Below, piece by piece: positions 492 to 15,506 of a DNA stretch of 15,506 bases (its first letter is position 1; the number at the start of each line of letters is the position of its first letter). Below the pieces are notes generated by a model. It did not search any database. It worked only from the letters and a program-made list of their open reading frames with translations, and was not told the DNA's origin. Origin of the DNA: a virus (Duplodnaviria > Heunggongvirae > Uroviricota > Caudoviricetes); IMG/VR virus record IMGVR_UViG_2703718798_000014, positions 1-15,506 of that record; one strand, written 5' to 3'. The position numbers and the translations under genes were made by a program.

Positions 492-576
492 TTTCTCATT
501 TAGTGTTTTTTGCGGTTCGGGGGTGTTCGTGGTTGTTTGTGTATGTATTTGATATTAAATGAATTATTCTATTTTC

Positions 577-644: not shown

Positions 645-679
645 TTTTGAGGCTGGAGGACTGAAAAGAGGATCTGATA

Positions 680-1915: not shown

Positions 1916-1958
1916 CAAATTACGGCTGTTTTTCTTGCGAAAAATGGCCCTCTAAAAT

Positions 1959-1991
1959 AAATCGTCGAATATCGGCAAATATCGACGATTT
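1959..1991. promoter_or_regulatory. Inverted repeat with perfect 10-bp arms (AAATCGTCGA / TCGACGATTT, 14-bp spacer) downstream of int
   Basis: Arms at 1959-1968 and 1982-1991 are exact reverse complements. No clear U-run follows, so a protein-binding site is as likely as a terminator. Confidence 0.35.
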
Positions 1992-2323
1992 ATATGTGTC
2001 AAGTATTGAAAAAATTTGAAATGTCTTCTTCTGAGTTCTTATTCTCTGTTTCTTGATTGTTCCAACACCTGATGGTTTATCTATTTGTTTTTAATGAGGT
2101 AACTCAGGTGTCATGCCAAATGACGACATTTTTTGTTGCGTCGCTTAAAAACTCGTGACACGATTTCATGAACAGCAGCAAACTCTAGAGAACTTTGACG
2201 AACATAAAGTTCAGAAAGGTTACGTATTCAATTTAAGAGGTGAAAAAAGCTAAGAAGTAATCTTTTCCCGTATATCCACAGCGAAACAAAAATTTCTATA
2301 CGTAATTTTATGTAGGGCTTTTT

Positions 2324-2518
2324 ATGCGCGAAATAAATGAAGATCGTGTAATCCGCGAAAAAGAATGCAGAGAGCTAACAGGCGTTTGCCGCACAACTCG
2401 TTACGAGATGGAAAAACAAGGCCGCTTTCCCTCCCGTATCAGTCTTGGCGGTCGTTCGGTTGGCTGGATTAAGTCTGAGGTTGTCGCCTGGGTCAAAAAC
2501 CGCGAACGCGTCAATTAA
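2324..2518 (+). CDS. alpA: AlpA-family (Xis-like, MerR-type winged helix) transcriptional regulator
   Basis: 64 aa; motif ELTGVCRTTRYEMEKQGRFPSRISLGGRSVGWIKSEVVAWV matches the AlpA pattern TG..R.T.Y....G.FP....LG.R.VGW..SE...W. Position immediately after int is typical of P4-like elements and PICIs. Confidence 0.85.
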   Translation: MREINEDRVIREKECRELTGVCRTTRYEMEKQGRFPSRISLGGRSVGWIKSEVVAWVKNRERVN

Positions 2519-2550
2519 GAATATTCATTCTTTAAATTCCGTCCGTGTTT

Positions 2551-2577
2551 TTGTTTGTACTTGTTCGCGGTTGTTCG
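2551..2577 (+). promoter_or_regulatory. Triple-box module TTGTTTGTAC-TTGTTCGCGG-TTGTTCG (10-bp register)
   Basis: Boxes begin at 2551, 2561, 2571. The same module recurs at 577-603, 15426-15452 and, in variant form, 7910-7936; a looser copy at 514-540. Followed by SD TAAGGAG (2608-2614) and ATG 2624. Confidence 0.55.
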
Positions 2578-2676
2578 TGAAGAAAAGAAGCGGCGCGTAT
2601 GCACCGCTAAGGAGTTTATTTTCATGACTTATGCAGCTTTCAATCTTAGCACCGCCGTAGCTGGTGGACAAGGCTA

Positions 2677-2904
2677 TCAGCCAGGCGGTCGGTTTTTGCC
2701 GGATTTAAGCCGCCGTGGGTATTTCTCGACAAAATCTTCAAGGGCAAATTTTTCTGGTGGCACTAAGCGCGGCGCTGGTGGTGGTATTTTTGTTCTGGTT
2801 AGTTCTTCCTCAAGTCTGGCGCAGGCTTCTGACTGCCTTTGCCGGATGATTTCATCATCTTGCGTTTGCGTGTCTTGTATTGGTGATAGTGTGTTGTTGG
2901 TCAT
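2677..2904 (-). CDS. Hypothetical protein (75 aa), second gene of leftward regulatory pair
   Basis: ORF downstream of and co-directional with the RHH gene; charged, helical-looking composition; weak RBS. No recognised domain. Confidence 0.4.
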   Translation of the reverse strand: MTNNTLSPIQDTQTQDDEIIRQRQSEACARLEEELTRTKIPPPAPRLVPPEKFALEDFVEKYPRRLKSGKNRPPG

Positions 2905-2961
2905 GATACTGCCCTGTAAAGCAATGCGCCGGAGTACCTCACACCACGGCGCTGATAGTGA

Positions 2962-3141
2962 TTATTCTGATTCTTTGGCCTTACGGCGCTGGCGGCGTTT
3001 GATCTCGCCTCGCATGGCTGTAACGATAAATTGCGCAGTGCTCTCGCCTGTTTCTTTTACTTGCTCCATAGCCTCAACAACTTCATGCGGGGCGCGAGCC
3101 TGTAATTTCTGTGATTTGTTATTGATATGGTCTCTTTCCAT
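2962..3141 (-). CDS. Ribbon-helix-helix (CopG/Arc/MetJ-like) DNA-binding protein, candidate island repressor
   Basis: 59 aa ORF, below the ORF-track length cutoff, translated by hand: MERDHINNKSQKLQARAPHEVVEAMEQVKETGESTAQFIVTAMRGEIKRRQRRKAKESE. Segment LQARAPHEVVEAMEQVKETGESTAQFIVTAM fits the RHH beta-strand/helix A/G-x-S turn/helix B pattern. AGGGA RBS 8 nt upstream. Start abuts a triple-palindrome operator. Confidence 0.5.
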   Translation of the reverse strand: MERDHINNKSQKLQARAPHEVVEAMEQVKETGESTAQFIVTAMRGEIKRRQRRKAKESE

Positions 3142-3157
3142 TTCTGGTTCCCTTTGT

Positions 3158-3259
3158 GATTACTGGAATCCAGTATACACGAAAAAGACCAAAACAAAAC
3201 GCTTGAAGTGGATTCCACTTAGTGATTATACTGGAATCCAGTTGAGTGTTTATCACTCA
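3158..3259. promoter_or_regulatory. Divergent promoter/operator region: three related palindromes (ACTGGAaTCCAGT x2, AAGTGGAtTCCACTT) plus IR TTGAGTG-N5-CACTCAA; candidate rightward promoter TTGAAG-N18-TATACT
   Basis: Perfect palindromes at 3163-3175, 3206-3220, 3230-3242. O1 and O3 sit in ~22-bp direct repeats (TGATTA(TA)CTGGAATCCAGT). -35 TTGAAG 3203-3208 and -10 TATACT 3227-3232 are overlapped by O2 and O3. A second TATACT on the minus strand (complement of 3173-3178) could serve the RHH gene. Confidence 0.5.
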
Positions 3260-3338
3260 ATGCAAACGAGGCTGAAAAGGATTGCCGTCCTTTCGCAGCC
3301 TCTGACCACCAACGATAGCGAAAGTATCGAGGTAGCTA

Positions 3339-3538
3339 TGAGAAATCATACCACACACCCGCAAGGGCGGGACTCGCACAACCTGAATAAATTCACCTGG
3401 CGCTTTATGCAGTGCCTGACAGACAGCATTGCAATATTCACCGTTACCGCTGCCACTGAACGCGAAGCCCGCGCCCAGTTGCCGCACGCACATCTGATTT
3501 TTGTCGCCCGTATTCGTCAGGGGGTGTGCCATGCCTGA
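3339..3538 (+). CDS. Hypothetical protein (66 aa; alternative start 3260 gives 93 aa), first gene of rightward operon
   Basis: GAGGT RBS 5 nt upstream of ATG 3339; E. coli-preferred codons; stop overlaps next gene start (coupling). Strand assignment is uncertain: an antisense ORF (3257-3532) covers the same DNA. Confidence 0.35.
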
Positions 3539-3851
3539 TATGTCAAATTACCAGTACCTGATTAATCCGCATTTTAAGTGTGATCATGATATTGCTAAGA
3601 AGGTTTATTCCGCTGCTGATGGGGCTACTGACAATATATCAATGGGTATTGCGTCAATTGGTAGCCTTATGTTTCATGCGTCAGAAAATGAGGAATATGA
3701 CGAAAAGGCCATGCGCATTGATATGGGTAATATCGGTTTGTTACTGGCAATGCTTGGACATTTTGATATTTCGTTACGGTGCACCATTGAAAATGCCACA
3801 GATGCATTAAATGCCATAAAGAAAGCGAATACTGATTCAAATCGGGGATAA
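3531..3851 (+). CDS. Hypothetical protein (106 aa)
   Basis: ATG 3531 with AGGGGG RBS 6 nt upstream; overlaps previous stop. No recognised motif. Confidence 0.5.
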   Translation: MPDMSNYQYLINPHFKCDHDIAKKVYSAADGATDNISMGIASIGSLMFHASENEEYDEKAMRIDMGNIGLLLAMLGHFDISLRCTIENATDALNAIKKANTDSNRG

Positions 3852-3857
3852 ATAATC

Positions 3858-4157
3858 ATGAGAACGTATTTATCTGGCTTGACTGCCAGCGGTTATGCAC
3901 ATCCAAAAATTATCCCCGGCGCTATTTATCGGGATAAGAACGGCAACAGAGTAACAGTAAAATCGATAATGTTTGACCGTGTGTATTTTATTCGTGATGG
4001 CTATTCATTTCATAGCTCGCTGAACGTGGAGATCTTTATTTGCAGATTCCGGCGGGAAATTCCGCCTTCCAGAAATAACCATGTGTCATGTATGGATGTT
4101 GATAAAAAACTACAGGAACTGAAAAACATGATTGCCGCGTGGAGAGAGCAGAAATGA
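3858..4157 (+). CDS. Hypothetical protein (99 aa)
   Basis: ATG 3858 with GGGGA RBS; stop overlaps primase start (ATGA). Confidence 0.5.
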   Translation: MRTYLSGLTASGYAHPKIIPGAIYRDKNGNRVTVKSIMFDRVYFIRDGYSFHSSLNVEIFICRFRREIPPSRNNHVSCMDVDKKLQELKNMIAAWREQK

Positions 4158-5971
4158 AAAAAGCGCCAAATTTAAAACACCAGCCACGTGACAAAATGAC
4201 GGAAGTCATCATTTTTGCGGGTAGTGATGCGTGGGCACATGCGAAGCAGTGGCAGGAACAGGACGGGCGACTGGCTGGCGATAACGTGCCACCTGTCTGG
4301 CTTGGAGAGCAACAACTTGCCGAACTGGACAACCTGCAAATCGTACCGGACGGACGCTATCGCGTGCGTCTCTATCAGGCGGGGTTATTGCGTTCGGGGC
4401 TTGTTAATACCATCGGGCAGAAACTGGCAGCGGCAGGTGTCAGGGATGCTGATTATTACCCTGAAGGAATGCACAGCCAGAAACGGGAGAACTGGCGCGA
4501 ATATCTGGAACGTGAGCGGGGAGATCTGACGGAAAAGAAAAAGGTAGTTGAACTGCCTGTAAAGAAAAAAGAGCGGGTAAAAGACGATAACGCTTCATCA
4601 CTGGCGCTTAACCAGATGGGAGCAAGTCAACGCGGCGAAGTTCTCCTGGCACATTATGGCGGTGAACTGGCGATTAATGCTGACTCTGACACTGTTCACC
4701 ATTACAACGGCGTTGTATGGGAGCCAGTACAGGATAAAGAATTACAGCGAGCTATGGCACAGATTTTCATTGATGCGGAGATCAGCTATTCGCAGAACGC
4801 CATTAAATCGGCGGTCGATACCATGAAGTTAAGTTTGCCTGTAATGGGGAATACAGCCCGTAACCTGATTGGATTCAGTAACGGGGTATTTGATACCCGT
4901 ACAGGTGATTTCCGTGAACACGATAAAAATGACTGGCTGTTAATTGCCAGTGAGTTACCGTTCACTCCACCAGCAGAAGGTGAAACGCTGGCAACACATG
5001 CGCCGAATTTCTGGAAGTGGTTACGCCGTTCGGTGGCTGAGAATGACCGCAAGGCAGATCGCGTTCTGGCAGCGTTATTTATGGTGCTGGCGAACCGGTA
5101 CGACTGGCAGTTATTCATTGAGGTAACAGGTCCAGGGGGAAGTGGTAAAAGCGTGATGGCGGAGATTTGCACCATGCTGGCGGGTAAGGCCAACACAGTA
5201 TCGGCAAGCATGAAGGCGCTGGAAGATGCAAGGGAACGCGCGTTAGTGGTTGGCTTTTCGCTGATTATCATGCCGGATATGACCCGCTACGCTGGTGATG
5301 GGGCAGGAATTAAGGCCATTACAGGCGGTGACAAGGTGGCAATTGACCCGAAACACAAAGCCCCCTACTCAACGCGTATTCCGGCAGTAGTGCTGGCGGT
5401 TAACAATAACGCCATGTCATTCAGTGACCGCAGCGGGGGGATCTCGCGCCGTCGGGTGATATTCAATTTTTCGGAAGTTGTACCGGAGAACGAACGCGAT
5501 TCAATGCTGGCGGAAAAAATAGAAGGTGAGCTGGCGGTAGTGATTCGTCATCTGCTTACACGGTTTGCTGACCAGGACGAAGCCAGACGCCTTTTATATG
5601 AGCAGCAGAAATCAGAAGAAGCACTCGCGATAAAGCGTGAAGGTGATTCGCTGGTGGACTTCTGCGGCTATCTCATGGCGTCGGTAATGTGTGATGGCCT
5701 GTTAGTGGGTAATGCTGAAATTGTGCCATTCAGCCCGCGCAGGTATCTCTATCATGCCTATCTGGCTTATATGAAGGCACATGGGTTTGGTAAACCTGTA
5801 ACACTGACGCGCTTCGGTAAAGATATGCCGGGGGCAATGGCGGAATATGGCAGGGAGTATATGAAACGGAAAACGAAGCACGGTTTGCGTTCAAACGTGA
5901 CACTGACGGAGGAATCAGAAGACTGGATGCCGTCATGTGTATCGGTCACTAATGACGATAGCAAAAATTAA
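4154..5971 (+). CDS. DNA primase/helicase, P4-family (SF3 helicase-type NTPase)
   Basis: 605 aa from ATG 4154 (GGAGAG RBS 7 nt upstream; the track start 4139 is an upstream GTG). Walker A GPGGSGKS in ...FIEVTGPGGSGKSVMAEI...; Walker B-like LIIMPD. Followed directly by an iteron array of the P4 ori type. Confidence 0.85.
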   Translation: MKKAPNLKHQPRDKMTEVIIFAGSDAWAHAKQWQEQDGRLAGDNVPPVWLGEQQLAELDNLQIVPDGRYRVRLYQAGLLRSGLVNTIGQKLAAAGVRDADYYPEGMHSQKRENWREYLERERGDLTEKKKVVELPVKKKERVKDDNASSLALNQMGASQRGEVLLAHYGGELAINADSDTVHHYNGVVWEPVQDKELQRAMAQIFIDAEISYSQNAIKSAVDTMKLSLPVMGNTARNLIGFSNGVFDTRTGDFREHDKNDWLLIASELPFTPPAEGETLATHAPNFWKWLRRSVAENDRKADRVLAALFMVLANRYDWQLFIEVTGPGGSGKSVMAEICTMLAGKANTVSASMKALEDARERALVVGFSLIIMPDMTRYAGDGAGIKAITGGDKVAIDPKHKAPYSTRIPAVVLAVNNNAMSFSDRSGGISRRRVIFNFSEVVPENERDSMLAEKIEGELAVVIRHLLTRFADQDEARRLLYEQQKSEEALAIKREGDSLVDFCGYLMASVMCDGLLVGNAEIVPFSPRRYLYHAYLAYMKAHGFGKPVTLTRFGKDMPGAMAEYGREYMKRKTKHGLRSNVTLTEESEDWMPSCVSVTNDDSKN

Positions 5972-5984
5972 ACTTATGGAATAA

Positions 5985-6213
5985 CTGTTCACCACTGTTC
6001 ACCCTGTCATAAATATCTTTTATATCAGTATATTATAGGGTGAACAGTTATTTATGAACTGTTCACCAAACTATTCACTGTTCACCTTTTTGATTGTTTA
6101 TTGAGCTTCAAGGGTGAACAGTGGTGAACAGTTGGTGAATAGTTTTTGTGAAACTGTTCACCCCTTAACATTATGAATTAAAAGATAAAATATCAAAAGG
6201 TGAACAGGTGAAG
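5985..6213. repeat. Replication origin: at least 9 exact copies of the octamer core TGTTCACC / GGTGAACA in both orientations (plus degenerate copies), flanking an AT-rich segment
   Basis: Direct (CTGTTCACC) at 5985, 5995, 6059, 6078, 6154, with degenerate 6071. Inverted (GGTGAACAG) at 6039, 6113, 6123, 6199, with degenerate 6134 and 6208. AT-rich 6010-6038. Octamer matches the P4 ori/crr type I iteron as I recall it. Confidence 0.75.
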
Positions 6214-6258
6214 GGTTAAAACGCAAAAATTTTAATTTACTGCTGTGAGATAAAGCCT

Positions 6259-6504
6259 ATGACAGCGAAGCACACAAAAAAATCACAATCGCACGCCCTT
6301 GATTTGACGGAACACTGGTTAAGGGTGTCGATAAAAATCATCGACCGCAACGCCGGGGAAGGATATGCGAAAGCACATCCCGAACTGATTAGCGCATTCA
6401 TGACAACGGCAGCTGCAAACTTTGCCACGCTGACAGAACGGGAGATTGCCGAAGCGGAACAGGTAACAACCATCAACGTTAAAACCGGAGAGGTGGAATC
6501 ATGA
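6259..6504 (+). CDS. Hypothetical protein (81 aa)
   Basis: First ORF after ori; no clear RBS; stop overlaps next start. Confidence 0.45.
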   Translation: MTAKHTKKSQSHALDLTEHWLRVSIKIIDRNAGEGYAKAHPELISAFMTTAAANFATLTEREIAEAEQVTTINVKTGEVES

Positions 6505-6806
6505 GCGAACCAAAATTTGGTGAAAAATTTTACAAGCACAACGGACGGATCACGATTCTGCAAATAAGCGCAGCTACACCAGGCTGGTGGGTTGAAACAG
6601 ACGAAGGATCCTCACCTGTGGCATCATGGGCGCTTTGTGTGCTTAGTTACCCTGACCGCGATGTGTATCAGGATATTCTGCCTGTGATATCCACTGACAA
6701 AGGCATGAAACCCGTAGACATCAAAAACATGGGTTTTCAGTGTGTAATGCTCACTGAAAAAATGATGGAAGAGATGAAAAAGAACAACGCCGGATCGCTT
6801 CACTGA
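6501..6806 (+). CDS. Hypothetical protein (101 aa)
   Basis: GGAGAGGTGG RBS; ATGA overlap with previous gene. Confidence 0.55.
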   Translation: MSEPKFGEKFYKHNGRITILQISAATPGWWVETDEGSSPVASWALCVLSYPDRDVYQDILPVISTDKGMKPVDIKNMGFQCVMLTEKMMEEMKKNNAGSLH

Positions 6807-6815
6807 GGTGGCAAT

Positions 6816-7226
6816 ATGACAGCACAAATTGCAGCTTACGGGCGGCTGGTGGACGACCCGCAGGTAAAACAGACCAGTAAGGGCACACCGATGACGCTGG
6901 CGCGTATGGCGGTATCGTTGCCATGTAGTCAGGCGCAGGATGGGCAGGCGACGTTATGGCTATCGGTCATCGCATTTGGTAAGCAGGCCGACTTCCTGGC
7001 TAAACATCAAAAAGGCGACGTTGCCAGCGTATCCGGCACGATGCAGGTCAGCCAGTGGACCGGACAGAACGGGGAAACGCGGCAGGGTTATCAGGTTATT
7101 GCAGACAGCGTAATCAGTGCCCGTGCGGCACGTCCTGGCGGGAACAGACGCAAAACCACAGGCACACAGGGTAATCAGCCACCAGCGGGAGGCGATGACC
7201 CTTACGGTGACGGTATTCCGTTCTGA
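6816..7226 (+). CDS. ssb: Single-stranded DNA-binding protein (OB-fold, SSB family) with short C-terminal ...DDPYGDGIPF tail
   Basis: GAGGTGG RBS. N-terminal YGRLVDDPQV...; core WLSVIAFGKQADFLAKHQKGDVASVSGTMQVSQWTGQNGETRQ aligns by eye with E. coli SSB (W..V..FGK.A....KG......G....WT...G); C-terminal GIPF resembles the DIPF tip. Confidence 0.75.
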   Translation: MTAQIAAYGRLVDDPQVKQTSKGTPMTLARMAVSLPCSQAQDGQATLWLSVIAFGKQADFLAKHQKGDVASVSGTMQVSQWTGQNGETRQGYQVIADSVISARAARPGGNRRKTTGTQGNQPPAGGDDPYGDGIPF

Positions 7227-7236
7227 GGGGGTGGCG

Positions 7237-7509
7237 ATGGTACATGACCGCATAGCGGAAGAACTCGAGGCGAAAGGCTTTTACCGGAGGGCGGCGGCGC
7301 GATGGGGTGAAGTCATGCTGCTGGTGGAGACAGACAAGGAACGGCATCAGGTTACGATGCGACGGCTGGAATGTTCCAGGAAGGCACAGAAGCCACCGGA
7401 GCCGCCGGATAACTTCGGAGACCTGAGAAAGGCAGTAGATCGCACTTATGCTGAAATGGGTATAGATGGTGTAAGCGATGAAATATGGCGTAATTACCCA
7501 GACAGCTAA
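7237..7509 (+). CDS. Hypothetical small protein (91 aa); possibly PerC-like regulator (tentative)
   Basis: ATG 7237 with GAGGGGG RBS (the track start 7117 is an upstream extension overlapping ssb). Motif EELEAKGFYRRAAARWGEVM resembles my recollection of PerC-family proteins; unverified. Confidence 0.5.
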   Translation: MVHDRIAEELEAKGFYRRAAARWGEVMLLVETDKERHQVTMRRLECSRKAQKPPEPPDNFGDLRKAVDRTYAEMGIDGVSDEIWRNYPDS

Positions 7510-7514
7510 TCAAC

Positions 7515-7538
7515 AGCCGGAGAAATCCGGCTTTTTTT
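7515..7538 (+). terminator. Rho-independent terminator (stem AGCCGGA / TCCGGCT, GAAA loop, T7 run)
   Basis: Perfect 7-bp stem 7515-7521 / 7526-7532, tetraloop GAAA, then TTTTTTT; directly after the stop of the 7237-7509 gene. Confidence 0.65.
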
Positions 7539-7633
7539 GCACCAGTTGAAACGGTATGGCGCATTACCGGGTTTTCGTCACGGTCAGGCATAGTTACTAT
7601 CTGAAACAAACAGACACAACAGAGGAAAAAACA

Positions 7634-7858
7634 ATGCCGATGAAATTTGATGAGATATTAAAACAGCGTGATAAATACCATGCTGACAACATGGAGACGA
7701 TGAGCATCAATGATTACCGCGCATTCCTGGAGACGGGCGCACTGATTGAAAAGGATCAGCATGGTTTTGTGAGATGTGCTCTGTCCGGTGAAATGCTGGC
7801 GGTAAATCCTGAACAGATAGATGCATTGATAGAATTTCTGAAAGGGATCAGGGACTGA
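7634..7858 (+). CDS. Hypothetical protein (74 aa)
   Basis: ATG 7634 with AGAGGA RBS 7 nt upstream (the track start 7556 is an upstream extension). Flanked by two near-identical terminators. Confidence 0.5.
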   Translation: MPMKFDEILKQRDKYHADNMETMSINDYRAFLETGALIEKDQHGFVRCALSGEMLAVNPEQIDALIEFLKGIRD

Positions 7859-7868
7859 GCACGCATAC

Positions 7869-7890
7869 AGCCGGAGCAATCCGGCTTTTT
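7869..7890 (+). terminator. Rho-independent terminator (same stem AGCCGGA / TCCGGCT, GCAA loop, T5 run)
   Basis: Stem 7869-7875 / 7880-7886 identical to the 7515 terminator; T-run follows. Confidence 0.6.
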
Positions 7891-7909
7891 GTCATTTTTT
7901 GTAAATTAT

Positions 7910-7936
7910 TTGTTCGTGGTTGTTCCACGTTGTTCA
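7910..7936 (+). promoter_or_regulatory. Triple-box module TTGTTCGTGG-TTGTTCCACG-TTGTTCA upstream of the head/packaging operon
   Basis: Boxes at 7910, 7920, 7930 in exact 10-bp register; 215 bp upstream of the capsid ATG; third box (TTGTTCAC) also resembles the ori iteron. Confidence 0.5.
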
Positions 7937-8001
7937 CTGACAGGATCGGCATATTTTACCCGAACTGAATCATGAGTATTCTCGCCCGTGGTGCCAGGAC
8001 G

Positions 8002-8049
8002 CTGGGGCCACTTTCCCGCCTGTTAATGTGCTCGCCAATATTCATTACC
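8002..8049. promoter_or_regulatory. Long inverted repeat (11-bp perfect arms TTTCCCGCCTG / CAGGCGGGAAA, 26-bp spacer) in the capsid-operon leader
   Basis: Arms 8002-8012 and 8039-8049 are exact reverse complements. Confidence 0.35.
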
Positions 8050-8112
8050 AGGCGGGAAAACGATCGGTGCGATTGCTGATTTCCTTATGAAAAACGGTTG
8101 AGTTTTTGCCGC

Positions 8113-8150
8113 GTCCTGGAGTTCCTTACTTAACCCCAGGACTTTTTTTT
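8113..8150 (+). terminator. Intrinsic-terminator-like hairpin plus T8 run ending at the capsid start codon (candidate attenuator or antitermination target)
   Basis: Stem TCCTGGAGTT (8114-8123) pairs with AACCCCAGGA (8132-8141) with one mismatch; T8 at 8143-8150; ATG at 8151. No Shine-Dalgarno can fit between hairpin and ATG. Confidence 0.5.
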
Positions 8151-9308
8151 ATGCCGAGAATAATCGAATTACGCCAGCAGAAAACCGCCATTAAAAATCA
8201 GATGCGCGACATGCTGGAGAACGCGGAAAAAGAAAACCGCAGCCTTAACGATGCAGAGGGCGCAAAATTTGACGAATTACGCGCTAAAGCTGAATCCCTC
8301 GATAAAGACATTTCCCGCCTTGAAGCCATTGCAGACGAAGAGCGCAGCAAGCCAGGTAAAAGCAGCCAGACCACTGACCCGGCAGAACTCCGCAACTACA
8401 TCCTGACAGGTGAAACCCGCGCATTAAGTACAGGCGTTCCCGCTGATGGTGGTTATACCGTTATCCCCGAACTGAACACCGAAATCATGCGAATGCTGAC
8501 GGATGAATCCACCATGCGCCGCATCTGTACCGTGAAGAAAATCAGCAGCAACGAGTTTAAGCAGCTTGTTTCCGCTGGCGGTGCGACCGTTAACCACGGT
8601 GAAGAGGGTAAGACACGCGAACAGACCAGCACCCCGCAGATTAACGAGGTGAGCATTAAGCTGTATCCGGTCTATGCGTACCCGCGCACCACACAGGAAA
8701 TCGTGGATTTTTCCGATGTGGACATCCTTTCATGGCTGACGGGTGAGATTGGCGACACCTTCACGGAAACCGAAGAAAGCGATCTGGTTGTGGGCGACGG
8801 TGACAAAAAAGCAAAAGGTTTTTTATCCGTACCCCGTGCAGAGAAGAACGACAAAGAGCGTGATTTTGGTACGTTGCAGGTAATTAAACCTTCCGAATCT
8901 CTGGCGTGGACATCTGCGGACCCGCTGATCGACCTGAAATTTGCATTACGTAAAAAATACCGCAAAAACGCGGTCTGGGTGGTTAACTCCACGACGGCGG
9001 CAAAACTTCAGAAGGTGAAGAACGCGAACGGTGATTACATCTGGCGCGACCGTTTACAGGCTGGTGATCCTGATACGTTGCTGGGCCTTCCGGTCGAATA
9101 TCTGGAGTTTATGCCTGATAACGTTATTGCCCTGGGTGACTTCAAACGCGGTTACTACATTGTTGATCACGAAACAGGTGTTCGCACCAGACCGGACAAC
9201 CTCACAGAGCCGGGCTTCATCAAAATTTTCACGCAGAAATATTTAGGCGGTGGCGTGGTGGATTCGAACGCGATCAAGATTCTGGAACTGCCACAGGACG
9301 ACGATTAA
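8151..9308 (+). CDS. Major capsid protein, HK97 fold, with N-terminal delta (scaffold-like) domain
   Basis: 385 aa from ATG 8151 (the track start 8106 is an upstream TTG). N-terminal coiled-coil-like IELRQQKTAIKNQMRDMLENAEKENRSLNDAEGAKFDELRAKAESLDKDISRLEA; C-terminal half resembles HK97 gp5 by eye (...GDYIWRD...LLGLPVEY...GDFKRGYYIVDHETG...). Confidence 0.9.
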   Translation: MPRIIELRQQKTAIKNQMRDMLENAEKENRSLNDAEGAKFDELRAKAESLDKDISRLEAIADEERSKPGKSSQTTDPAELRNYILTGETRALSTGVPADGGYTVIPELNTEIMRMLTDESTMRRICTVKKISSNEFKQLVSAGGATVNHGEEGKTREQTSTPQINEVSIKLYPVYAYPRTTQEIVDFSDVDILSWLTGEIGDTFTETEESDLVVGDGDKKAKGFLSVPRAEKNDKERDFGTLQVIKPSESLAWTSADPLIDLKFALRKKYRKNAVWVVNSTTAAKLQKVKNANGDYIWRDRLQAGDPDTLLGLPVEYLEFMPDNVIALGDFKRGYYIVDHETGVRTRPDNLTEPGFIKIFTQKYLGGGVVDSNAIKILELPQDDD

Positions 9309-9318
9309 CAGCATACAG

Positions 9319-9347
9319 AAGGGGCTTAAAAGCCCCTTTAGTGTTTT
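9319..9347 (+). terminator. Stem-loop (AAGGGGCTT / AAGCCCCTT) after the capsid gene; partial terminator or stability element
   Basis: Perfect 9-bp inverted repeat 9319-9327 / 9330-9338, followed by T-rich TTTAGTGTTTT; sits between capsid stop and protease start. Confidence 0.4.
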
Positions 9348-9920
9348 ATGGGTGAAAAAATTATGAAGAGTATGGAAATCCGGTCATCGGAAATCACCAC
9401 CAGCGCCAGCAACACGCTTACAGGCTACGTTGTTCGCTGGGATAAGCTTTCAGAGCTGCTATGGGGGGAGTTTTACGAAAAATTCCAGCGGGGAGCGTTT
9501 ACTGAATGGCTTGCGGCGGGTAATGACGTTCGCGGCCTGTATGAGCATGACCACAGCATGTTGCTGGGGCGTACCCGTTCCGGCACGCTGAAACTGGAAG
9601 AGGACGAAACAGGGTTACGCTTTGAACTGACCCCACCGGATACCAGTACAGGGCGCGACGTTATCGAACTGGTTAAGCGTGGGGACATCTCGGGGATGAG
9701 CTTTGGCTTTCGCTCCCGTAAGGATGTATGGGATACCACAACAGATCCATGCGTGCGCACCGTGCTGGTGGCGGAACTGTACGAAATTACCGTTACATCG
9801 GTACCGGCTTACCCCGATTCCGGCGTGGAGCTGGCCCGCCGTTCCCTGTATGAGCAGCACCCCGAAAAAATGCCGCGTGCGGATAATCGCCGCTGGTGGG
9901 TGGATTTAGCGGGGGTGTGA
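9348..9920 (+). CDS. Prohead maturation protease, HK97 family (peptidase S78)
   Basis: Motifs TGYVVRWD, YEHDHSMLLGRTRSGTL, GRDVIELVKRGDISGMSFGF, ITVTSVPAYPDSG match the HK97 gp4-type protease pattern. Start ambiguous (ATG at 9348, 9363 or 9372). Confidence 0.85.
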   Translation: MGEKIMKSMEIRSSEITTSASNTLTGYVVRWDKLSELLWGEFYEKFQRGAFTEWLAAGNDVRGLYEHDHSMLLGRTRSGTLKLEEDETGLRFELTPPDTSTGRDVIELVKRGDISGMSFGFRSRKDVWDTTTDPCVRTVLVAELYEITVTSVPAYPDSGVELARRSLYEQHPEKMPRADNRRWWVDLAGV

Positions 9921-9921
9921 T

Positions 9922-11133
9922 ATGTGGCTTTTCAGAAGAAAAAAAGAGCAGCGCAGCATGACGCTTGATGAATTTATGGCGCTGGCTGGCACATCGAACA
10001 CGGGGGCGGGTGAGTACGTATCATCGGGGACAGCGGAATCACTGCCCGCCGTCATGAACGCCGTGACGGTCATCTCTGAGGCGGTGGCTACCATGCCGTG
10101 TTACCTGTACCTGGTACGCAATGAGAAGGGTAAGGAGGCCCGCGAGTGGCTTGATTCTCATCCGGTCGATCATATCCTCAACGAGCGCCCGAACGCATGG
10201 CAAACCCCCTACCAGTTTAAGCGAATGATGATCCGCCACTGCCTGTTAAACGGTAATGCTTACGCGGTGATTCAGTGGGGGCGTGATGGTTTTCCGGCGG
10301 CTTTACATCCTTACCCGCCGCAGTCGGTGAACGTGGAGCAGACAGGAGAACACAACTGGCGCTATTGCATCACTGACGCCTACACCGGAAACACCCGCAA
10401 CTATTTACCGTGGGAAGTACTTCACCTTCGTTACTCCACGGATGACGGCTTTATGGGGCGCTCACCTGTAACCATCTGCCGCGAATCGCTGGGGCTTGGG
10501 CTGGCCCAACAACGCCACGGCGCGAGCGTGATGCGTGATGGCATGATGGCGGCAGGGGTTATCACGTCAGGCGAATGGCTGGACGGCGTGAAAGGCAAAC
10601 AGGCATTAGCCGCACTGGAACGCTACAAAGGGGCCAGAAACGCCGGAAAAACGCCCATCCTTGAAGGGGGCATGAGTTACCAGCAGCTGGGCATGAGTAA
10701 CCAGGACGCCGAATGGCTGGCCTCCCGTCGCTTCACCATTGAAGACATCGCCCGAATGTTCAACGTCTCGCCGATTTTTCTGCAGGAATACAGCAACAGC
10801 ACCTACAGCAATTTCAGCGAGGCAAGCCGCGCATTTCTCACCATGACGATGCGCCCGTGGCTGGCGAACTTTGAGCAGCAGATAAAAAACGCCTTGCTGG
10901 TGGTCTCGCCTGTACCTGGTATCCGGTATCAGGTGGAGTTTGACAGCGCGGACCTGTTACGGGCCACACCTGGCGAACGCTTTGCCACCTATGAGCGAGG
11001 CATCAAATCCGGTGTTATGTGCCCGAACGAAGCCCGCGAACGAGAAGGGTTGTCTCCGCGTGATGGTGGTGATGAGTTCAGCCAGGCATGGAAACAGGAA
11101 GTAAAAATCAGCGAGGGAGAAAAACCGGAATGA
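9922..11133 (+). CDS. Portal protein, HK97 family
   Basis: 403 aa; portal-like motifs ERPNAWQTPYQF, LLNGNAYAVIQW, GRSPVTICRESLGLGLA, DAEWLASRRFTIEDIARMFNVSPIFL, NEAREREGL. GGGGGTG RBS; position after protease. Confidence 0.9.
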   Translation: MWLFRRKKEQRSMTLDEFMALAGTSNTGAGEYVSSGTAESLPAVMNAVTVISEAVATMPCYLYLVRNEKGKEAREWLDSHPVDHILNERPNAWQTPYQFKRMMIRHCLLNGNAYAVIQWGRDGFPAALHPYPPQSVNVEQTGEHNWRYCITDAYTGNTRNYLPWEVLHLRYSTDDGFMGRSPVTICRESLGLGLAQQRHGASVMRDGMMAAGVITSGEWLDGVKGKQALAALERYKGARNAGKTPILEGGMSYQQLGMSNQDAEWLASRRFTIEDIARMFNVSPIFLQEYSNSTYSNFSEASRAFLTMTMRPWLANFEQQIKNALLVVSPVPGIRYQVEFDSADLLRATPGERFATYERGIKSGVMCPNEAREREGLSPRDGGDEFSQAWKQEVKISEGEKPE

Positions 11134-11468
11134 ACATAGGGCGACTGCGTGACAGGGTAACGATTCAGACCCTGAAACAGACCAGAGCCATGACGGGCGA
11201 AATACTCGAAACGTGGGAGGACGGTCACACACTCTGGGCAAGCGTGAACATGGTCAGCAGCAAGGAGGCCATTTCATCGGGTGCAGAGCTGGCGATTGGT
11301 ACCGTAAGGATCTGGATACGGTACCGGAAGGACATCAACGCCACCAGCCGGATAAAGGTCAATACGGGGCCGCTGGCGGGGCGTGTACTGAATATCATCG
11401 GGCAGCCGCTGCCGGATGCCGCCAGGACACGCCTTGAAATTCTTTGTCGTGAGGGCGCGGAAAAATGA
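11130..11468 (+). CDS. Head closure / head-tail joining protein (Phage_H_T_join-like)
   Basis: 112 aa from ATG 11130 (ATGA overlap with portal stop; the track start 11088 is an upstream extension). N-terminus MNIGRLRDRVTIQ and ...WASV...IRYRKDI... fit the head-tail joining family pattern. Confidence 0.7.
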   Translation: MNIGRLRDRVTIQTLKQTRAMTGEILETWEDGHTLWASVNMVSSKEAISSGAELAIGTVRIWIRYRKDINATSRIKVNTGPLAGRVLNIIGQPLPDAARTRLEILCREGAEK

Positions 11469-11761
11469 CAGAAGAACTTATCACCCTGGAAGAAGTGAAA
11501 CTCCATTGCCGCATCGATGGCGACGAGGAAGACCAGTTAATCAGCGGATACATTGCCGCATCGCTTGAGGCGTGCCAGATACACATAGGCAGGCGCTTTG
11601 ATGACGGGCTGGAGTTCACGCCAGCCATAAAGATTGGCTGCATGATGTTTATCGCTCACCTGTATGAGAATCGCCAGATTGTCGCGGATAACGCAAAAAC
11701 ACACGTACCCATGACGATTGGCGCACTCTGGACGGCTTACCGTGATGTGGGGGTGTACTGA
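11465..11761 (+). CDS. gp6-like head-tail connector (DNA-packaging) protein
   Basis: 98 aa; N-terminus LITLEEVKLHCRIDGDEEDQLISGYIAASLEACQIHIGRRF matches the gp6-like connector pattern; start overlaps previous stop. Confidence 0.7.
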   Translation: MTEELITLEEVKLHCRIDGDEEDQLISGYIAASLEACQIHIGRRFDDGLEFTPAIKIGCMMFIAHLYENRQIVADNAKTHVPMTIGALWTAYRDVGVY

Positions 11762-12201
11762 TGCCGTGGCAACCATTAAGACGATGTACAGAACCAGGCT
11801 GCAACAGGCGCGTGAAGTCCGGCAAGTGTGAGGAGCACAGACGCAGCGCACGCCAGCAGCAGGACAGCCGGAGAGGCAGCAGCAGGGAGCGAGGGTATAC
11901 GAGGCAGTGGGAGAAATACCGCGCCATGTATCTGAGTAAAAACCCGTTATGTGCGCATTGCCTGGAAAAAGGAATATACACGCCCGCCGTGGTGGTGGAT
12001 CACATTATCCCAATCGATGGCGGTAATGATGTTCTCTTCTGGCCTGAGTGGAATCATCAGCCATTGTGCCAGGCGTGTCATAACCAGAAAACGAAATGGC
12101 TTGATCCGTCCACAAAAAACAAGCGTGCTGCGGGTGGATTCCGTGAGGAGGAAGAACGGGCCGCTAACCGCAATAACTGGATGTATGGCGCTGATGAATG
12201 A
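11761..12201 (+). CDS. HNH endonuclease (packaging-associated)
   Basis: 146 aa; zinc-finger/HNH signature CTEPGCNRRVKSGKCEEH...NPLCAHCL...VDHIIPIDGGND...NHQPLCQACHNQKT. Position just upstream of the terminase genes is typical of HNH/cos-packaging HK97-like heads. Confidence 0.85.
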   Translation: MPWQPLRRCTEPGCNRRVKSGKCEEHRRSARQQQDSRRGSSRERGYTRQWEKYRAMYLSKNPLCAHCLEKGIYTPAVVVDHIIPIDGGNDVLFWPEWNHQPLCQACHNQKTKWLDPSTKNKRAAGGFREEEERAANRNNWMYGADE

Positions 12202-12367
12202 GCGGGAACAAAACCGCCTTATCCGTGGACTTATAAGGCAGCGTGACGCATGGAAGGCACAGGAAACAGGGCATAAAGATAAAGCATCAGGACGCGCAGA
12301 ACGCATCACAGCGACGCGATTAAACGACCGTGACCGCGAGGTTATGGAATGTTTCCGCAATCGCTGA
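12194..12367 (+). CDS. Possible small basic protein (57 aa) between HNH and cos candidate
   Basis: ATG 12194 (or 12185), weak RBS, overlaps HNH stop. Product MNEREQNRLIRGLIRQRDAWKAQETGHK... The track ORF 11951-12367 is an upstream extension overlapping HNH. Confidence 0.3.
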   Translation: MNEREQNRLIRGLIRQRDAWKAQETGHKDKASGRAERITATRLNDRDREVMECFRNR

Positions 12368-12370
12368 TGA

Positions 12371-12489
12371 GGCAGCCGGACGGGGTGGGGGGAGTTTTCA
12401 GGACGAACCCGACCCCGCCCAGAACCGAACGCCTCCTCAAATTTTTATGCACGGGAATTTTTTGAAAAATAATCTGGCGAAAAATAAGC
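12371..12489. other. Candidate cos (terminase recognition/cleavage) region: G-rich imperfect inverted repeat followed by AT-rich A-tract DNA
   Basis: GGACGGGGTGGGG (12378-12390) and CCCGACCCCGCCC (12408-12420) are imperfect inverse complements; then AAATTTTTATGCACGGGAATTTTTTGAAAAATAAT. Located between HNH and TerS as in HK97-like cos phages. Confidence 0.35.
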
Positions 12490-12846
12490 ATGGCAAGACC
12501 ACCGAAAGTCCCCGCCTACCTGGATGACATCGCCGTGAAGCAGTGGCGGGAAAAATCGCGGCAGCTTGCGGAACGGGGAGACCTGACCCCCGCCGACTGG
12601 AGCAATCTGGAACTGTATTGTGTCAACTACTCCATTTACCGGAAAGCCGTTGCAGACCTTGCGGCGCGCGGGTTCAGCATTGTTAACAGTCAGGGCGGCG
12701 AGAGCAGAAACCCCGCATTAAGCGCAAAATCCGACGCTGAAAGAGTGATGATAAAAATGGCCTCCTTGCTCGGTTTTGACCCGATAAGCCGCCGTAAAAA
12801 TCCACCGGAAACAGAAGAAGAGGACGAGCTTGACCGCCTGGAATAA
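12490..12846 (+). CDS. terS: Terminase small subunit (P27 / HK97 gp1 family)
   Basis: 118 aa; pattern ...AVKQWREKSRQLAERGDLTPADWSNLELYCVNYSIYRKAVADL...SRNPALSAKSDAERVMIKMASLLGFDPISRRK matches P27-family small terminase; stop overlaps TerL start. Confidence 0.85.
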   Translation: MARPPKVPAYLDDIAVKQWREKSRQLAERGDLTPADWSNLELYCVNYSIYRKAVADLAARGFSIVNSQGGESRNPALSAKSDAERVMIKMASLLGFDPISRRKNPPETEEEDELDRLE

Positions 12847-14491
12847 GTACGCAGAAGACGTAAAAACGGGCAAAATTCCGGCCTGTAAACGGCTGAAACA
12901 GGCCGTTAAACGGTACTTTTCGGACCTTAAAAACCCCCTTTATACGTTCGATCGTGAGGTTGTGGAGCGGTTTATTGCCTTTTCCAGGGTGTGCCCGCAC
13001 GTAAAAGGGCCGATGCGTGGCAGACCCATTGAGCTGGAGCCGTGGCAGCAGTTCGCCTTTGCGTGCATCCTCGGCTTTAAGGTTAAGGCCACCGGACGGC
13101 GCAAATACACGAGCGCCTTTATCGAAGTGCCGCGCAAAAATGCTAAATCAACGACCGCCGCGATTCTGGCTAACTGGTTTCTGATTATGGAGAACGGTCA
13201 GCAGGATATTTACACCGCAGCGGTGAGCCGTGACCAGGCGAGGATCGTATTTGATGATGCGCGTCAGATGTGCATTTTATCCCGACCGTTACGCAGGCGG
13301 GTGAATATTCAGGCGCATAAGGTGATACACCCGAAAACCAACAGCCTGTTAAAGCCGCTGGCAGCAAAAGCGGCAACTATCGAGGGCACAAACCCCAGTC
13401 TTTCTATCGTGGACGAATACCACCTACACCCCGACAACGGCGTATATTCTGCGCTTGAACTGGGGATGGGGGCACGTCCCGAAGGGCTGTTATTTGCCAT
13501 TACCACATCGGGAAGTAACGTCGTTTCAGCCTGTAAGCAGCATTATGATTATTGCTGCCAGATCCTGGACGGCGAAGAGGTTAACGAATCGCTTTTTGTG
13601 CTGATTTACGAACTGGACGACGAAAACGAGGTTGATGATCCGGAGATGTGGATAAAGGCGAACCCTAATATCGATGTTTCCGTGGATCGTGAAAAACTGG
13701 CCTCAACCATTCAGAAAGCGCGGGGTATTCCGTCGCAATGGGTGGAGATGATGACAAAGCGATTTAATATCTGGTGTCAGGGGACTACCCCGTGGATGGG
13801 TAATGGTGCATGGGCTGAGTGTGCCGGAACGTTCACGGAGGAAGATTTACACGGTCAGGAGTGTTACGCGGGGCTGGACTTATCATCAACCAGCGATATT
13901 TCCAGCGTGTGCTATGCCTTTCCGGTCGGTAAAACCATTATGATGATTTCCCGTCATTATCTGCCGGAGTTCCAGCTACAGAACCCCGCCAATAAAAACC
14001 GCGCTGTCTATCGTCAGTGGGCTAAAGCAGGCTGGATACGCACAACGCCTGGCGACTGCATTGATTACGACCGGATCAGAGATGACATCATGCAGGACGC
14101 GGAGAAATTTAATATCAGGCTGGTGGGCTTTGATACGTGGAACGCCACGCATCTCAGAACGCAATTACAGGGGGCAGGTTTTGAGGTGGAGCCGTTCCCG
14201 CAAACCTACCTCAGATTCAGTCCGGCGGCGAAATCGTTCGAAGTTTTTGTTAACCGCAGGGTGATTGTGCATCGTGGCGATCCGGTGTTGTCCTGGTCGA
14301 TGAGTAACGTCGTGATGCAGAGTGACGCGAACGCCAATATCAAGCCGAACAAGAAAAAATCACCGAACAAGATAGACCCGAGCGTGGCGGCGCTGATGGC
14401 GTTTGGTACATTCCAGGCAGAGCATGAGGATTTTGCTTTTGATATAAGCGACAGCCACCGCCAGAAACTGGAAGAATTTAGCGGGGTGTAA
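12830..14491 (+). CDS. terL: Terminase large subunit (HK97 gp2 / Terminase_1 family)
   Basis: 553 aa; apparent TTG start overlapping terS. ATPase motif VPRKNAKSTTAA (the PRKNGKS-type Walker A of this family) and C-terminal nuclease-like region. Confidence 0.9.
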   Translation: MTAWNKYAEDVKTGKIPACKRLKQAVKRYFSDLKNPLYTFDREVVERFIAFSRVCPHVKGPMRGRPIELEPWQQFAFACILGFKVKATGRRKYTSAFIEVPRKNAKSTTAAILANWFLIMENGQQDIYTAAVSRDQARIVFDDARQMCILSRPLRRRVNIQAHKVIHPKTNSLLKPLAAKAATIEGTNPSLSIVDEYHLHPDNGVYSALELGMGARPEGLLFAITTSGSNVVSACKQHYDYCCQILDGEEVNESLFVLIYELDDENEVDDPEMWIKANPNIDVSVDREKLASTIQKARGIPSQWVEMMTKRFNIWCQGTTPWMGNGAWAECAGTFTEEDLHGQECYAGLDLSSTSDISSVCYAFPVGKTIMMISRHYLPEFQLQNPANKNRAVYRQWAKAGWIRTTPGDCIDYDRIRDDIMQDAEKFNIRLVGFDTWNATHLRTQLQGAGFEVEPFPQTYLRFSPAAKSFEVFVNRRVIVHRGDPVLSWSMSNVVMQSDANANIKPNKKKSPNKIDPSVAALMAFGTFQAEHEDFAFDISDSHRQKLEEFSGV

Positions 14492-14504
14492 TGAGGTCAG
14501 CAGC

Positions 14505-14786
14505 ATGACAGAAGCCGAAATAACGGGATTAATCCGCCGCGTTGCCGGAATCAGCCAGCAGGCTGACGAACAGGCCACGCAGCCGGACAGCGTGACAGCC
14601 GAAAACTATGCGCGTGTTGTTGCTGAGGTGATGCGCCGTGATGGTATAGAACTTAATGGCGTGGATATGCGCAACATACGAACCAGAGTTCTTGAGTTGC
14701 TGGCCTACCGTCGCCGCGTGGAGATGTATCGGGAGAAGGAGAAAATAACGTACCACTGGAAGAAGCCGGAGCGGTTGCGGCGGTAA
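14505..14786 (+). CDS. Hypothetical protein (93 aa) downstream of TerL
   Basis: GAGGT RBS 7 nt upstream of ATG 14505; basic C-terminus. No recognised motif. Confidence 0.5.
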   Translation: MTEAEITGLIRRVAGISQQADEQATQPDSVTAENYARVVAEVMRRDGIELNGVDMRNIRTRVLELLAYRRRVEMYREKEKITYHWKKPERLRR

Positions 14787-15081
14787 CTGGTTGATATTCC
14801 CGACGGACCAAAAATGGGTGGCTACATCCCTCGCTTCTGAGGACTGTTAACAAGCTGCCTGAAAGACAGTCACAAACTACGAAATTTTCGCAGTTTAATT
14901 AATGATCAGCTTAATCGCTAACCCGCTGATATTTTCGGAAACCTCAATTTGAGGAAGTCGGCGCGGTAACTCGCTGAACTTTAAGCAAAGTGCAAAATTG
15001 CGCTTGCTGAATAATCATTATGATTACGCAGATGATTAAGGAATGACCGAAGGCGGAAATTCGCCTGTGGTTAATGGGGGA

Positions 15082-15362
15082 GTTGCAGATCTGCAACTCG
15101 ACCATGAAACTACGGAAACTACCCGTAGTTTGGGTAGTAAGAGTAACACCCAGATTTTGGGTCTTACTCGTGATACCCAAATTTGGGGTATCAGTGGCAA
15201 CCATAACGACTTTCGTTACGGTTGATGCTTTTACCCCATTGGGGGAAAGGTATTACGATAATCATAACACCTACCGAACAGGTAAAGCCCACCAGCCTGA
15301 TTAACGTTTAACCGGAAAAAAATTCCGGTAGGTGGGGATCCCCATATCGGGGAACATCCACC
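15082..15362. other. Palindrome-dense non-coding segment (8 or more distinct inverted repeats), candidate structured RNA or multi-protein recognition site
   Basis: GTTGCAGATCTGCAAC (15082-15097); AAACTACGG/CCGTAGTTT (15107-15131); nested AGTAAGA...ACCCAGATTTTGGGT...TCTTACT (15136-15168); GATACCCAAATTTGGGGTATC (15172-15192); CCCCATTGGGG (15234-15244); CCGGAAAAAAATTCCGG (15312-15328); GGTGGGGATCCCCATATCGGGGAACATCCACC (15331-15362). No plausible ORF. Confidence 0.45.
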
Positions 15363-15422
15363 AGCTTCATAACGGATAGCCGGAAAATGATAACGGTTAA
15401 GCAAAACCGCCAGCAAATTTCC

Positions 15423-15497
15423 CTTTTGTTTGTTATTGTTCGTCATTGTTCGCAGAGCTTCAACGAAATGTGTGGTCAGTTGTGTGGTCAGTTTTTA
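15423..15497. repeat. Right copy of the ~75-bp imperfect direct repeat (triple TTGTT box plus tandem GTGTGGTCAGTT x2)
   Basis: 15423-15497 aligns with 566-643. Boxes at 15426, 15436, 15446; tandem 12-mer at 15469-15492. Homology ends after CAGTTTTT; the window ends 9 bp later. Confidence 0.7.
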
Positions 15498-15506
15498 GGT
15501 TTTTAA

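Follow-up and report, generated by a model that had tools for sequence, protein, structure and literature searches.

What is the segment at positions 15082-15362 of the 15,506-nt window (the whole stretch of DNA analysed here), in which inverted repeats are crowded together downstream of the gene for the large terminase subunit (TerL), where did it come from, and does it act as RNA or as DNA? The window is a capsid-forming phage-inducible chromosomal island (cf-PICI) of Escherichia coli, and a sequence-only reading had proposed for the segment a structured non-coding RNA (ncRNA), a region resembling the phage attachment site attP or an alternative packaging site. We find that 15082-15362 is the distal half of an extragenic palindrome array that spans ~0.6 kb between the last island gene and the attachment (att) arm. 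The array is a widespread, PICI-associated element of which literature searches returned no description, and several of its modules match inverted repeats in phage regulator genes. The identity and origin of the modules, namely, a PICI-specific array and copies of phage-gene pieces, are well supported; how the array works, that is, its function, is what we infer from them.

The palindrome array and its relatives

The palindrome-dense, non-coding character of 15082-15362 was confirmed, with four corrections. Perfect stems of at least 6 bp number eight in the bin 15001-15300 compared to ~0.95 per 300 bp in the remaining window, and the stretch 15060-15365 folds at -132.8 kcal/mol on the plus strand and -134.6 kcal/mol on the minus strand, with dinucleotide shuffles at about -85 ± 5 (z-scores of -8.9 and -9.4, respectively), its minimum free energy structure being a row of ~10 back-to-back hairpins. 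Palindrome density is far beyond chance. The palindrome previously read as 16 bp long is indeed perfect but measures 20 bp (GAGTTGCAGATCTGCAACTC, 15080-15099). Three of the four reported ACCC-N(4-7)-GGGT units are exact ACCC-N7-GGGT sites, located at 15121, 15148 and 15175 with a period of exactly 27 bp, whereas the supposed fourth is ACCCC-ATT-GGGGG at 15234; across the whole 15.5-kb window, ACCC-N7-GGGT has four matches versus 0.14 expected. The mutually exclusive pairings were borne out by GGGGATCCCC and CCCCATATCGGGG (15333-15353), which compete for shared bases. The dense stretch is real but wider than originally delimited, extending from the stop codon of orf93 (14787) to ~15400. We also agree that no plausible open reading frame (ORF) is present: four mechanical ORFs (60-86 aa) overlap the segment, none of which has a Pfam or PHROG match, and relatives vary here by insertion and deletion of whole modules. 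The array and its modules, several of which include or adjoin consensus sites for integration host factor (IHF) or Chi, are listed below.

14787-15400: whole extragenic palindrome array, with ~19 hairpin-forming modules and ~63% of bases paired
14784-14796, minus strand: IHF consensus TATCAACCAGTTA (WATCARNNNNTTR) over the orf93 stop codon
14916-14963, plus strand: 'a' unit, an IHF consensus (14919-14931, minus strand) and the palindrome CCTCAATTTGAGG (14942-14954); antisense copy of roi codons 42-57
14964-15009, plus strand: 'b' unit, box TAACTCGCTGA and palindrome GTGCAAAATTGCGC; antisense copy of the RNFALC...EL segment of a Rha-domain gene
15007-15073: two hairpin modules, AATAATCATTATGATT...GCAGATGATTA and GGCGGAAATTCGCC
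15074-15105: H1, the 20-bp perfect palindrome with ATGG/CCAT flanks
15107-15193: H2-H4, three ACCC-N7-GGGT dyads, H2 with two alternative pairings
15198-15224, plus strand: H5, AACCATAACGA-CTT-TCGTTACGGTT; antisense copy of codons ~47-59 of ant of Shiga toxin (Stx) phages (ASTITEIVMVAED, P22_AR_N domain)
15225-15307: H6 (TTTACCCCATTGGGGGAAA) and the H7 domain
15289-15296, minus strand: Chi (GCTGGTGG on that strand), inside CCACCAGCCTGATTAA
15311-15362: H8 (ACCGGAAAAAAATTCCGGT) and H9 (GGTGGGGATCCCCATATCGGGGAACATCCACC, with competing pairings); cos slot of sibling PICIs between H8 and H9
15350-15506, plus strand: att-arm module, co-varying with the type of integrase (Int) and AlpA

At the proximal end, the last codons of orf93 (CGG CGG TAA) resemble the GGCGCGG/TAAC junction between downstream repeat units, and the array effectively has the 3' end of this gene as its first unit. 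The AATAATCATTATGATT...GCAGATGATTA module is a paralogue of the GGTCATAATGACC...GACCAT module of other islands, and H7 exists in two alternative forms among relatives. Overall, the H2-H4 stretch is a 71-bp imperfect palindrome centred at 15155. With three ~17-bp dyad-symmetric sites at regular centre-to-centre spacing, it is reminiscent of the tripartite operators of lambdoid phages (OR1-3, OL1-3), but its sites recur every 27 bp, compared to 23-24 bp in those operators, neither a promoter nor a gene adjoins them, the half-site motif is not conserved in diverged relatives, and phage contigs yielded no matching operator. ACCC-N7-GGGT as an operator was dropped because the only matches to the pattern in viral contigs were PICI copies and chance occurrences in GC-rich sequence.

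Parts of the array segment are present in 1,317 of 5,426 complete E. coli genomes. The array lies between orf93 and attR in 9/9 PICI loci inspected, which span the att sites tqsA, clpS, thiM and phoQ, two kinds of replicase (D5-type primase, DUF927) and four or more packaging layouts. We extracted 23 distinct relative arrays of 434-1722 bp, all at the matching position, each of which is a string of 17-24 small hairpin domains, with modules of 20-50 bp being present or absent, duplicated and reordered between islands. In EcCIEDL933, the archetype, the distal half of the array is 88% identical to that of the window. The array is not strictly PICI-confined, given that it also occurs in a lambdoid prophage of E. 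coli OkiPb01710 (L101 1460-1950; L numbers designate the compared records), ~100 bp downstream of the antiterminator gene Q. There, a contiguous run of modules (GGTCATAATGACC..., H5, H6, H7 form B, Chi and H8), 77% identical to the window, is followed by further hairpins of similar style. Some relatives carry accessory genes between array modules, including an abortive-infection family protein in L099 (1746-2507) and hypothetical ORFs in L028 (1691-1999 and 2315-2584), and the array marks a 3' cargo hotspot of the islands with such insertions.

The closest chromosomal parallel that we considered is BIME-1/RIB/RIP, in which palindromic units of the REP (repetitive extragenic palindromic) family reportedly flank an IHF site at the 3' ends of transcription units (Boccard and Prentki 1993; Oppenheim et al. 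1993). Both are extragenic sets of short imperfect palindromes with an IHF consensus, placed after the last gene of an operon, and both are mosaics of variable copy number; the function of BIME-1/RIB/RIP is likewise debated (mRNA stability, gyrase/IHF binding, nucleoid organization). By contrast, the array lacks the REP consensus, as judged by eye only, its palindromes differ from one another, several are derived from phage regulators, and IHF boxes are confined to the proximal half. Furthermore, ~76% of E. coli genomes lack the array, so it is not a chromosomal repeat family.

Module matches to phage regulators, IHF boxes and Chi

Relaxed searches over 50,697 phage records yielded matches that are short and sharply bounded, and at least five module types match inverted repeats in genes of the Bro network, a group of domain-swapping regulator genes (PMC10111431). 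The 'a' unit is identical at 32/35 nt, in antisense, to roi of HK620, H-19B and many Stx phages (E 1e-3), and the matched stretch contains the only IHF consensus of roi, 10 nt from one of the five inverted repeats of at least 6 bp in this gene. For the 'b' unit, the antisense counterpart is a segment (RNFALC...EL) of a Rha-domain gene in Stx2a phages. The H5 allele of L028 is identical at 30/31 positions to ant of phage PA2 and many Stx phages (E 1e-3), its counterpart being the only inverted repeat of at least 6 bp in the ant gene, and the H1 allele of L002 is identical at 21/21 positions to the main inverted repeat in the KilA-N gene of phage SfII and Stx2a phages. Another module from a sibling array matches other KilA-N genes. 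Pfam confirms that the domains of the matched roi/rha, kilA-N and ant genes are of the Bro-network type.

In the phage records, the matched repeats occupy L102 893-928 (roi), L103 1209-1230 (kilA-N), L105 2503-2531 (ant) and L106 601-643 (rha). The inverted repeats of the Bro-network genes fall at about codons 40-60, in the part that codes for the N-terminal, DNA-binding domain, and are the main or only ones in kilA-N and ant. These comparisons suggest that intragenic operators may be general in Bro-network regulator genes; Roi itself reportedly binds a site within its own gene beside an IHF site, and does so jointly with IHF (Clerget and Boccard 1996, as cited in PMC3430580). The likeness between the 'a' unit and the Roi/IHF site of HK022-type roi encompasses both the IHF consensus and the adjacent palindrome CCTCAATTTGAGG. 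However, the island copy is non-coding, is tandemly reiterated with other palindromes and lies outside 15082-15362.

The proximal half of the array is built from ~48-bp units, each consisting of TAACYNNYTGAWATT, then a palindrome, then GGCGCGG. Read on the opposite strand, the unit box is the IHF consensus WATCARNNNNTTR, and the positions conserved in the box are exactly those that are informative in the consensus. The 17.4 kb of arrays contain 43 perfect matches to WATCARNNNNTTR, none of them on the plus strand, versus 1.5 expected; two of the 43, at 14784 and 14919, are in the window. Across 54 unit variants, different perfect palindromes are set into a constant frame, including CCTCAATTTGAGG, CCACAGACTGTGG, TTCGCCAGCGGCGAA, CCCCCATTGGGGG, CCTGCAATGCAGG and GCGCAAAATTGCGC/GCTCAAAATTGAGC. 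Up to seven copies of the ~48-nt Rha sub-segment follow one another head to tail in a single orientation, and no two of them share their perfect palindrome.

The most conserved stretch of the array is CCACCAGCCTGATTAA, which is invariant in 13/13 diverse aligned sequences and contains a minus-strand Chi. The window as a whole (1-15506) has 17 Chi sites (GCTGGTGG), 11 on the plus and 6 on the minus strand, versus 0.42 expected from shuffles. The E. coli genome carries on average about one Chi per 4.6 kb, and the density in the island is ~5 times that value. Literature searches returned no paper on an excess of Chi in PICIs. Outward from the predicted cos (see below), the nearest Chi in the correct orientation lies 1.5-2.9 kb away on either side, a placement that suggests protection of linear or rolling-circle DNA from RecBCD.

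We tentatively favour, with less than even confidence, the reading that the array sits in a recombination hotspot and functions at the DNA level, as a cluster of dyad-symmetric sites for protein binding. In its favour are the constant placement of the array across att sites and packaging modules, its DNA-type symmetry (see below), the IHF boxes in one orientation, the differing palindromes set in one frame, the Bro-network matches, the invariant Chi, and the cos modules and accessory genes within sibling arrays. The array would act on double-stranded DNA and not as RNA, with host IHF occupying the boxes and phage proteins of the Roi/Rha/KilA/Ant type occupying the palindromes. Once bound or bent, it would form a nucleoprotein platform beside attP and the ancestral cos slot and, together with Chi, might provide a RecBCD-stimulated exchange point for swapping cis-acting sites and accessory cassettes with co-resident phages.

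Several observations weigh against this reading. No IHF consensus is found inside 15082-15362, the two kilA-N matches are individually weak (E 2-5), and H2-H4 keep their arms but not the ACCC/GGGT motif itself, which has changed in the diverged L099 and, at site 2, in most relatives. Aligned modules diverge approximately as fast as the 4-fold sites of orf93, and variable columns are about as frequent in stems (52/154) as in loops or linkers (32/87; p = 0.67). Stems are thus not significantly better conserved than loops and linkers, and purifying selection within PICIs is not shown; an early impression that stems were the better conserved failed on counting. No homologues of Roi, KilA or Ant were found among the island proteins. 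Finally, HK106, a proven helper of EcCIEDL933, has neither a Bro-network gene nor a module match, so that an obligatory helper-sensing role is unlikely. We also regard as unlikely the possibility that the array is a library of decoy operators, or of antisense modules, copied from the autoregulatory sites within Bro-network genes (Roi/Rha, KilA-N, Ant) of many lambdoid phages, which with the aid of IHF would bind, sense or neutralize the antirepressor-type regulators of co-resident phages and be updated by Chi-driven exchange.

The near-neutral divergence also fits a non-adaptive origin, possible in our estimation though on balance doubtful, in which the modules are scars of recombination or template switching with co-replicating lambdoid phages, accumulated in a dispensable, Chi-stimulated hotspot without function for the island. 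The palindrome excess would then result from events that occur at hairpins or from templated repair 'correcting' quasi-palindromes. Stems that are not significantly more conserved than loops, orthologues without covariation, a mosaic module content with tandem duplications and accessory genes inserted among modules would all be expected from such a process, as would module pieces that are sharply bounded and highly similar to phage genes, H5 allele differences that resemble coding differences among ant alleles, and an array segment downstream of Q in a lambdoid prophage. Random debris, however, would not be selective, and yet the piece kept is the main or only inverted repeat (kilA-N, ant) or the IHF-adjacent repeat (roi). 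Moreover, palindromes are normally deletion-prone, the up to seven same-orientation Rha units with differing palindromes are hard to explain without selection or a dedicated mechanism, and the IHF consensus positions have been kept in 43 copies.

DNA symmetry versus RNA structure

A cluster of protein-binding sites would operate at the level of duplex DNA, whereas the sequence-only reading had put forward a structured ncRNA. The latter did not hold up. Rfam models run over the whole window gave no match at gathering score, and at E<=5 only two chance-level eukaryotic/archaeal matches appeared; the Rfam models for C4 and IsrK (P4-CI-like) did not match, and a tRNA/tmRNA scan found none. The two strands fold equally well, and the stem mismatches in 61 unique hairpins (14 A·C and 9 G·T) show no strand bias. 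The covariation analysis across related islands, suggested along with the ncRNA proposal, revealed a compensatory change in 0/26 predicted pairs, and there were no compensatory pairs on two alignments. In 38/82 unique inverted repeats (46% versus ~27% expected), the arms are only 0-2 nt apart, too close for the loop of an RNA hairpin. The centres of the palindromes are typically an A-run followed by a T-run, and the centre of H1 in L099 displays a symmetric change, GATC to AATT. Such centre-spanning symmetry points to a duplex dyad feature rather than an RNA hairpin.

A broader RNA-level explanation is that the array is the 3' untranslated tail of a single rightward operon, the hairpins of which stabilize the mRNA or block Rho or read-through into attP-int or host genes, with the Bro modules serving as antisense RNAs against helper roi, rha and ant. 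The array does start at the last stop codon of a unidirectional operon, it folds with a very strong z-score, three of its modules ('a', 'b' and H5) run antisense to phage genes, and RNA regulators within the Bro-network genes of satellites have precedent (PMC10111431). We nevertheless consider this explanation quite unlikely. Apart from the lack of an Rfam family, C4 and IsrK included, neither a sigma-70-like promoter nor a convincing plus-strand intrinsic terminator was found in the window array, the minus strand folds just as well, A·C mismatches slightly exceed G·T, and complementarity across the centre is useless to RNA hairpins. In addition, one kilA-N module is on the plus strand of the phage records, which would be the sense strand if kilA-N lies there, as roi does in that record. 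Terminator-like matches in 14400-15506 number three, only one of which, weak and on the minus strand (15162-15148), is inside 15082-15362; some sibling arrays contain terminator-like modules.

Known antisense regulators, namely, c4 of P1/P7, CI/seqA of P4 and sar of P22, resemble the array in being short structured elements tied to Bro-network genes, and such elements are used by satellites (PMC10111431). Unlike these, the array has no match to the Rfam C4/IsrK models, no promoter and no terminator, and its symmetry is of the DNA type.

Other candidates were considered and set aside. A CsrA sponge was dropped because GGA is not enriched above the rest of the island, and a replication origin or crr-like site was rejected because islands with different primases share the array. 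Some units open with GCCTAAC, as in integron attC sites or CALIN, but no complementary GTTRRRY closure was seen by eye, and the island has no IntI, only the P4-type Int. Mimics of CRISPR repeats and the dif/cer, matS, LexA and Fis motifs fitted poorly in a by-eye comparison.

Island context, att arms and packaging

The genes of the island that bear on the att and packaging proposals are as follows.

680-1915: P4-type integrase (Int)
2324-2518: AlpA
4139-5971: D5-type primase-helicase
8106-11133: three head genes (major capsid, prohead protease, portal), assigned by synteny with L001
11761-12201: HNH
12490-12846: small terminase subunit (TerS), P27-family
12830-14491: TerL
14505-14786, plus strand: orf93, 93 aa, last conserved PICI gene (phrog_1561, function unknown)

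An SSB gene is also among the island genes. The orf93 family is narrow, being limited to E. coli/Shigella, and a broader phylogeny based on it was dropped for this reason; the sole match in the phage records is partial and marginal (a Klebsiella phage, E 1e-3). The sole recombinase of the island is the P4-type Int, which has an arm-binding domain.

The suggestion of an attP-like region does not apply to 15082-15349, a stretch common to islands with differing integrases and att sites (tqsA, clpS, thiM, phoQ). In the tqsA island of strain 10205, it is 99.8% identical to the window, although Int and AlpA are only 66% and 64% identical, respectively, and the att site is another one. Int-type-specific sequence begins at ~15350, and the region to the right of this point varies with the Int/AlpA type. 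The att-arm module holds a second Chi (15358-15365, minus strand), TTGTTCG repeats and two tandem copies of TGTGTGGTCAGT (15469-15492). The two att arms share an imperfect direct repeat of ~80 bp (571-650, upstream of int, and 15421-15500) that includes the TTGTTCG repeats and the TGTGTGGTCAGT tandem, and no other positions have repeats common to both arms. The islands at tqsA, clpS and phoQ have a similar arm layout with other 12-mers (GGTGTAGTCAYT, GGTGTAGTTAAT). The arm repeats are probably arm-type Int sites, and we place the att arm from 15350 onward, with 15082-15349 apparently outside it.

It is therefore highly improbable that the segment provides arm-type sites for the integrase or the directionality factor AlpA as part of attP, given both this near-identity and the start of Int-type-specific sequence and arm-shared repeats only at ~15350-15420. 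In favour of such a role, the segment is ~150-500 bp from the predicted attR core and contains a direct repeat, CCACCAGCYTSAT...TAACG..CCGGAAAA, at 15289 and 15358; in lambda, the int-distal arm carries sites for the directionality factor and IHF. The attR core must lie just past the window end, as in L028, a relative inserted at thiM. On the attL side (441-497), the left flank of the island ends within the thiamine pyrophosphate (TPP) riboswitch of thiM: the 5' half of the aptamer stops at ...GAGAAATACCCGTA, and a weak, truncated Rfam TPP match covers 442-541. In L028 (2520-2614, attR side), the 3' half of the aptamer, followed by thiM, is found beyond attR. Insertion inside the riboswitch thus cuts thiMD off from its promoter and half of the riboswitch.

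The third proposal, an alternative packaging site, fails for this island, the cos of which lies elsewhere, but comes near the mark by homology, as sibling arrays house cos. The probable cos of the cf-PICI is at 12385-12450 (GGGGTGGGGGG...CCCGACCCCGCCC...CTCAAATTTTTATGCACGGGAATTTTTTG), just upstream of terS, and its layout, a G-run, a C-run and CTCAAATTTTTA, is that of the annotated phiP27 cos region. A lambda-type cosN is absent from the window, and 15082-15362 has no homology match to phage cohesive-end regions. In sibling PICIs without TerL, by contrast, a cos module is located inside the array, at the H8/H9 junction. In L002 (9198-9280) and L028 (2184-2252), this module has matches at the termini of SfII, SfIV and SfI and in the cos annotated for phiP27, with E-values as low as 1e-28. 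L003 (4587-4762) and L024 carry another type, a block of 175 nt with 80% identity to the sequence between HNH and terS in Stx phages of the BP-4795 type (BP-4795, YYZ-2008), and in both islands it is flanked by two H8 copies; the window has a single H8 and no cos block in the array. Hence, sibling arrays carry blocks from HNH-dependent phage cos regions (P27/SfII/BP-4795/HK97-type), but the palindromes of 15082-15362 have no counterpart in the cos regions compared. From these homologies, the cos type in a sibling array would predict which helper terminases package the respective PICI.

This arrangement could indicate that the array is a vestigial packaging flank, the ancestral cos neighbourhood of helper-packaged PICIs with IHF-bent accessory sites akin to cosB/cosQ, left functionless when the island moved cos beside its own terS and the cos module was lost from the array. 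The cos modules of L002 and L028, the block between H8 copies in L003 and L024, and the single H8 of the window, with its own cos upstream of terS, would be accommodated. Still, we rate this history as decidedly improbable: the capsid-forming islands (the window, L001, L025 and L100) keep long arrays, none needing them for packaging, the Bro-network homology is left unexplained, and we know of no packaging role for flanking palindromes.

About a quarter of complete E. coli genomes carry the array, which is unannotated and, as far as our searches show, undescribed. It marks the location of the PICI packaging site and of accessory and defence cargo, and its modular grammar, with IHF box plus palindrome, Chi and a cos slot between H8 copies, helps to delimit islands, predict the helper terminase and explain cargo exchange. 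The link to the Bro network suggests that these regulators carry operators in their own coding sequence and that satellites have copied them, which would offer a testable route of satellite-helper cross-talk. Should the array instead prove non-adaptive, it would nonetheless document, with unusual clarity, how satellites and phages exchange short patches of sequence.

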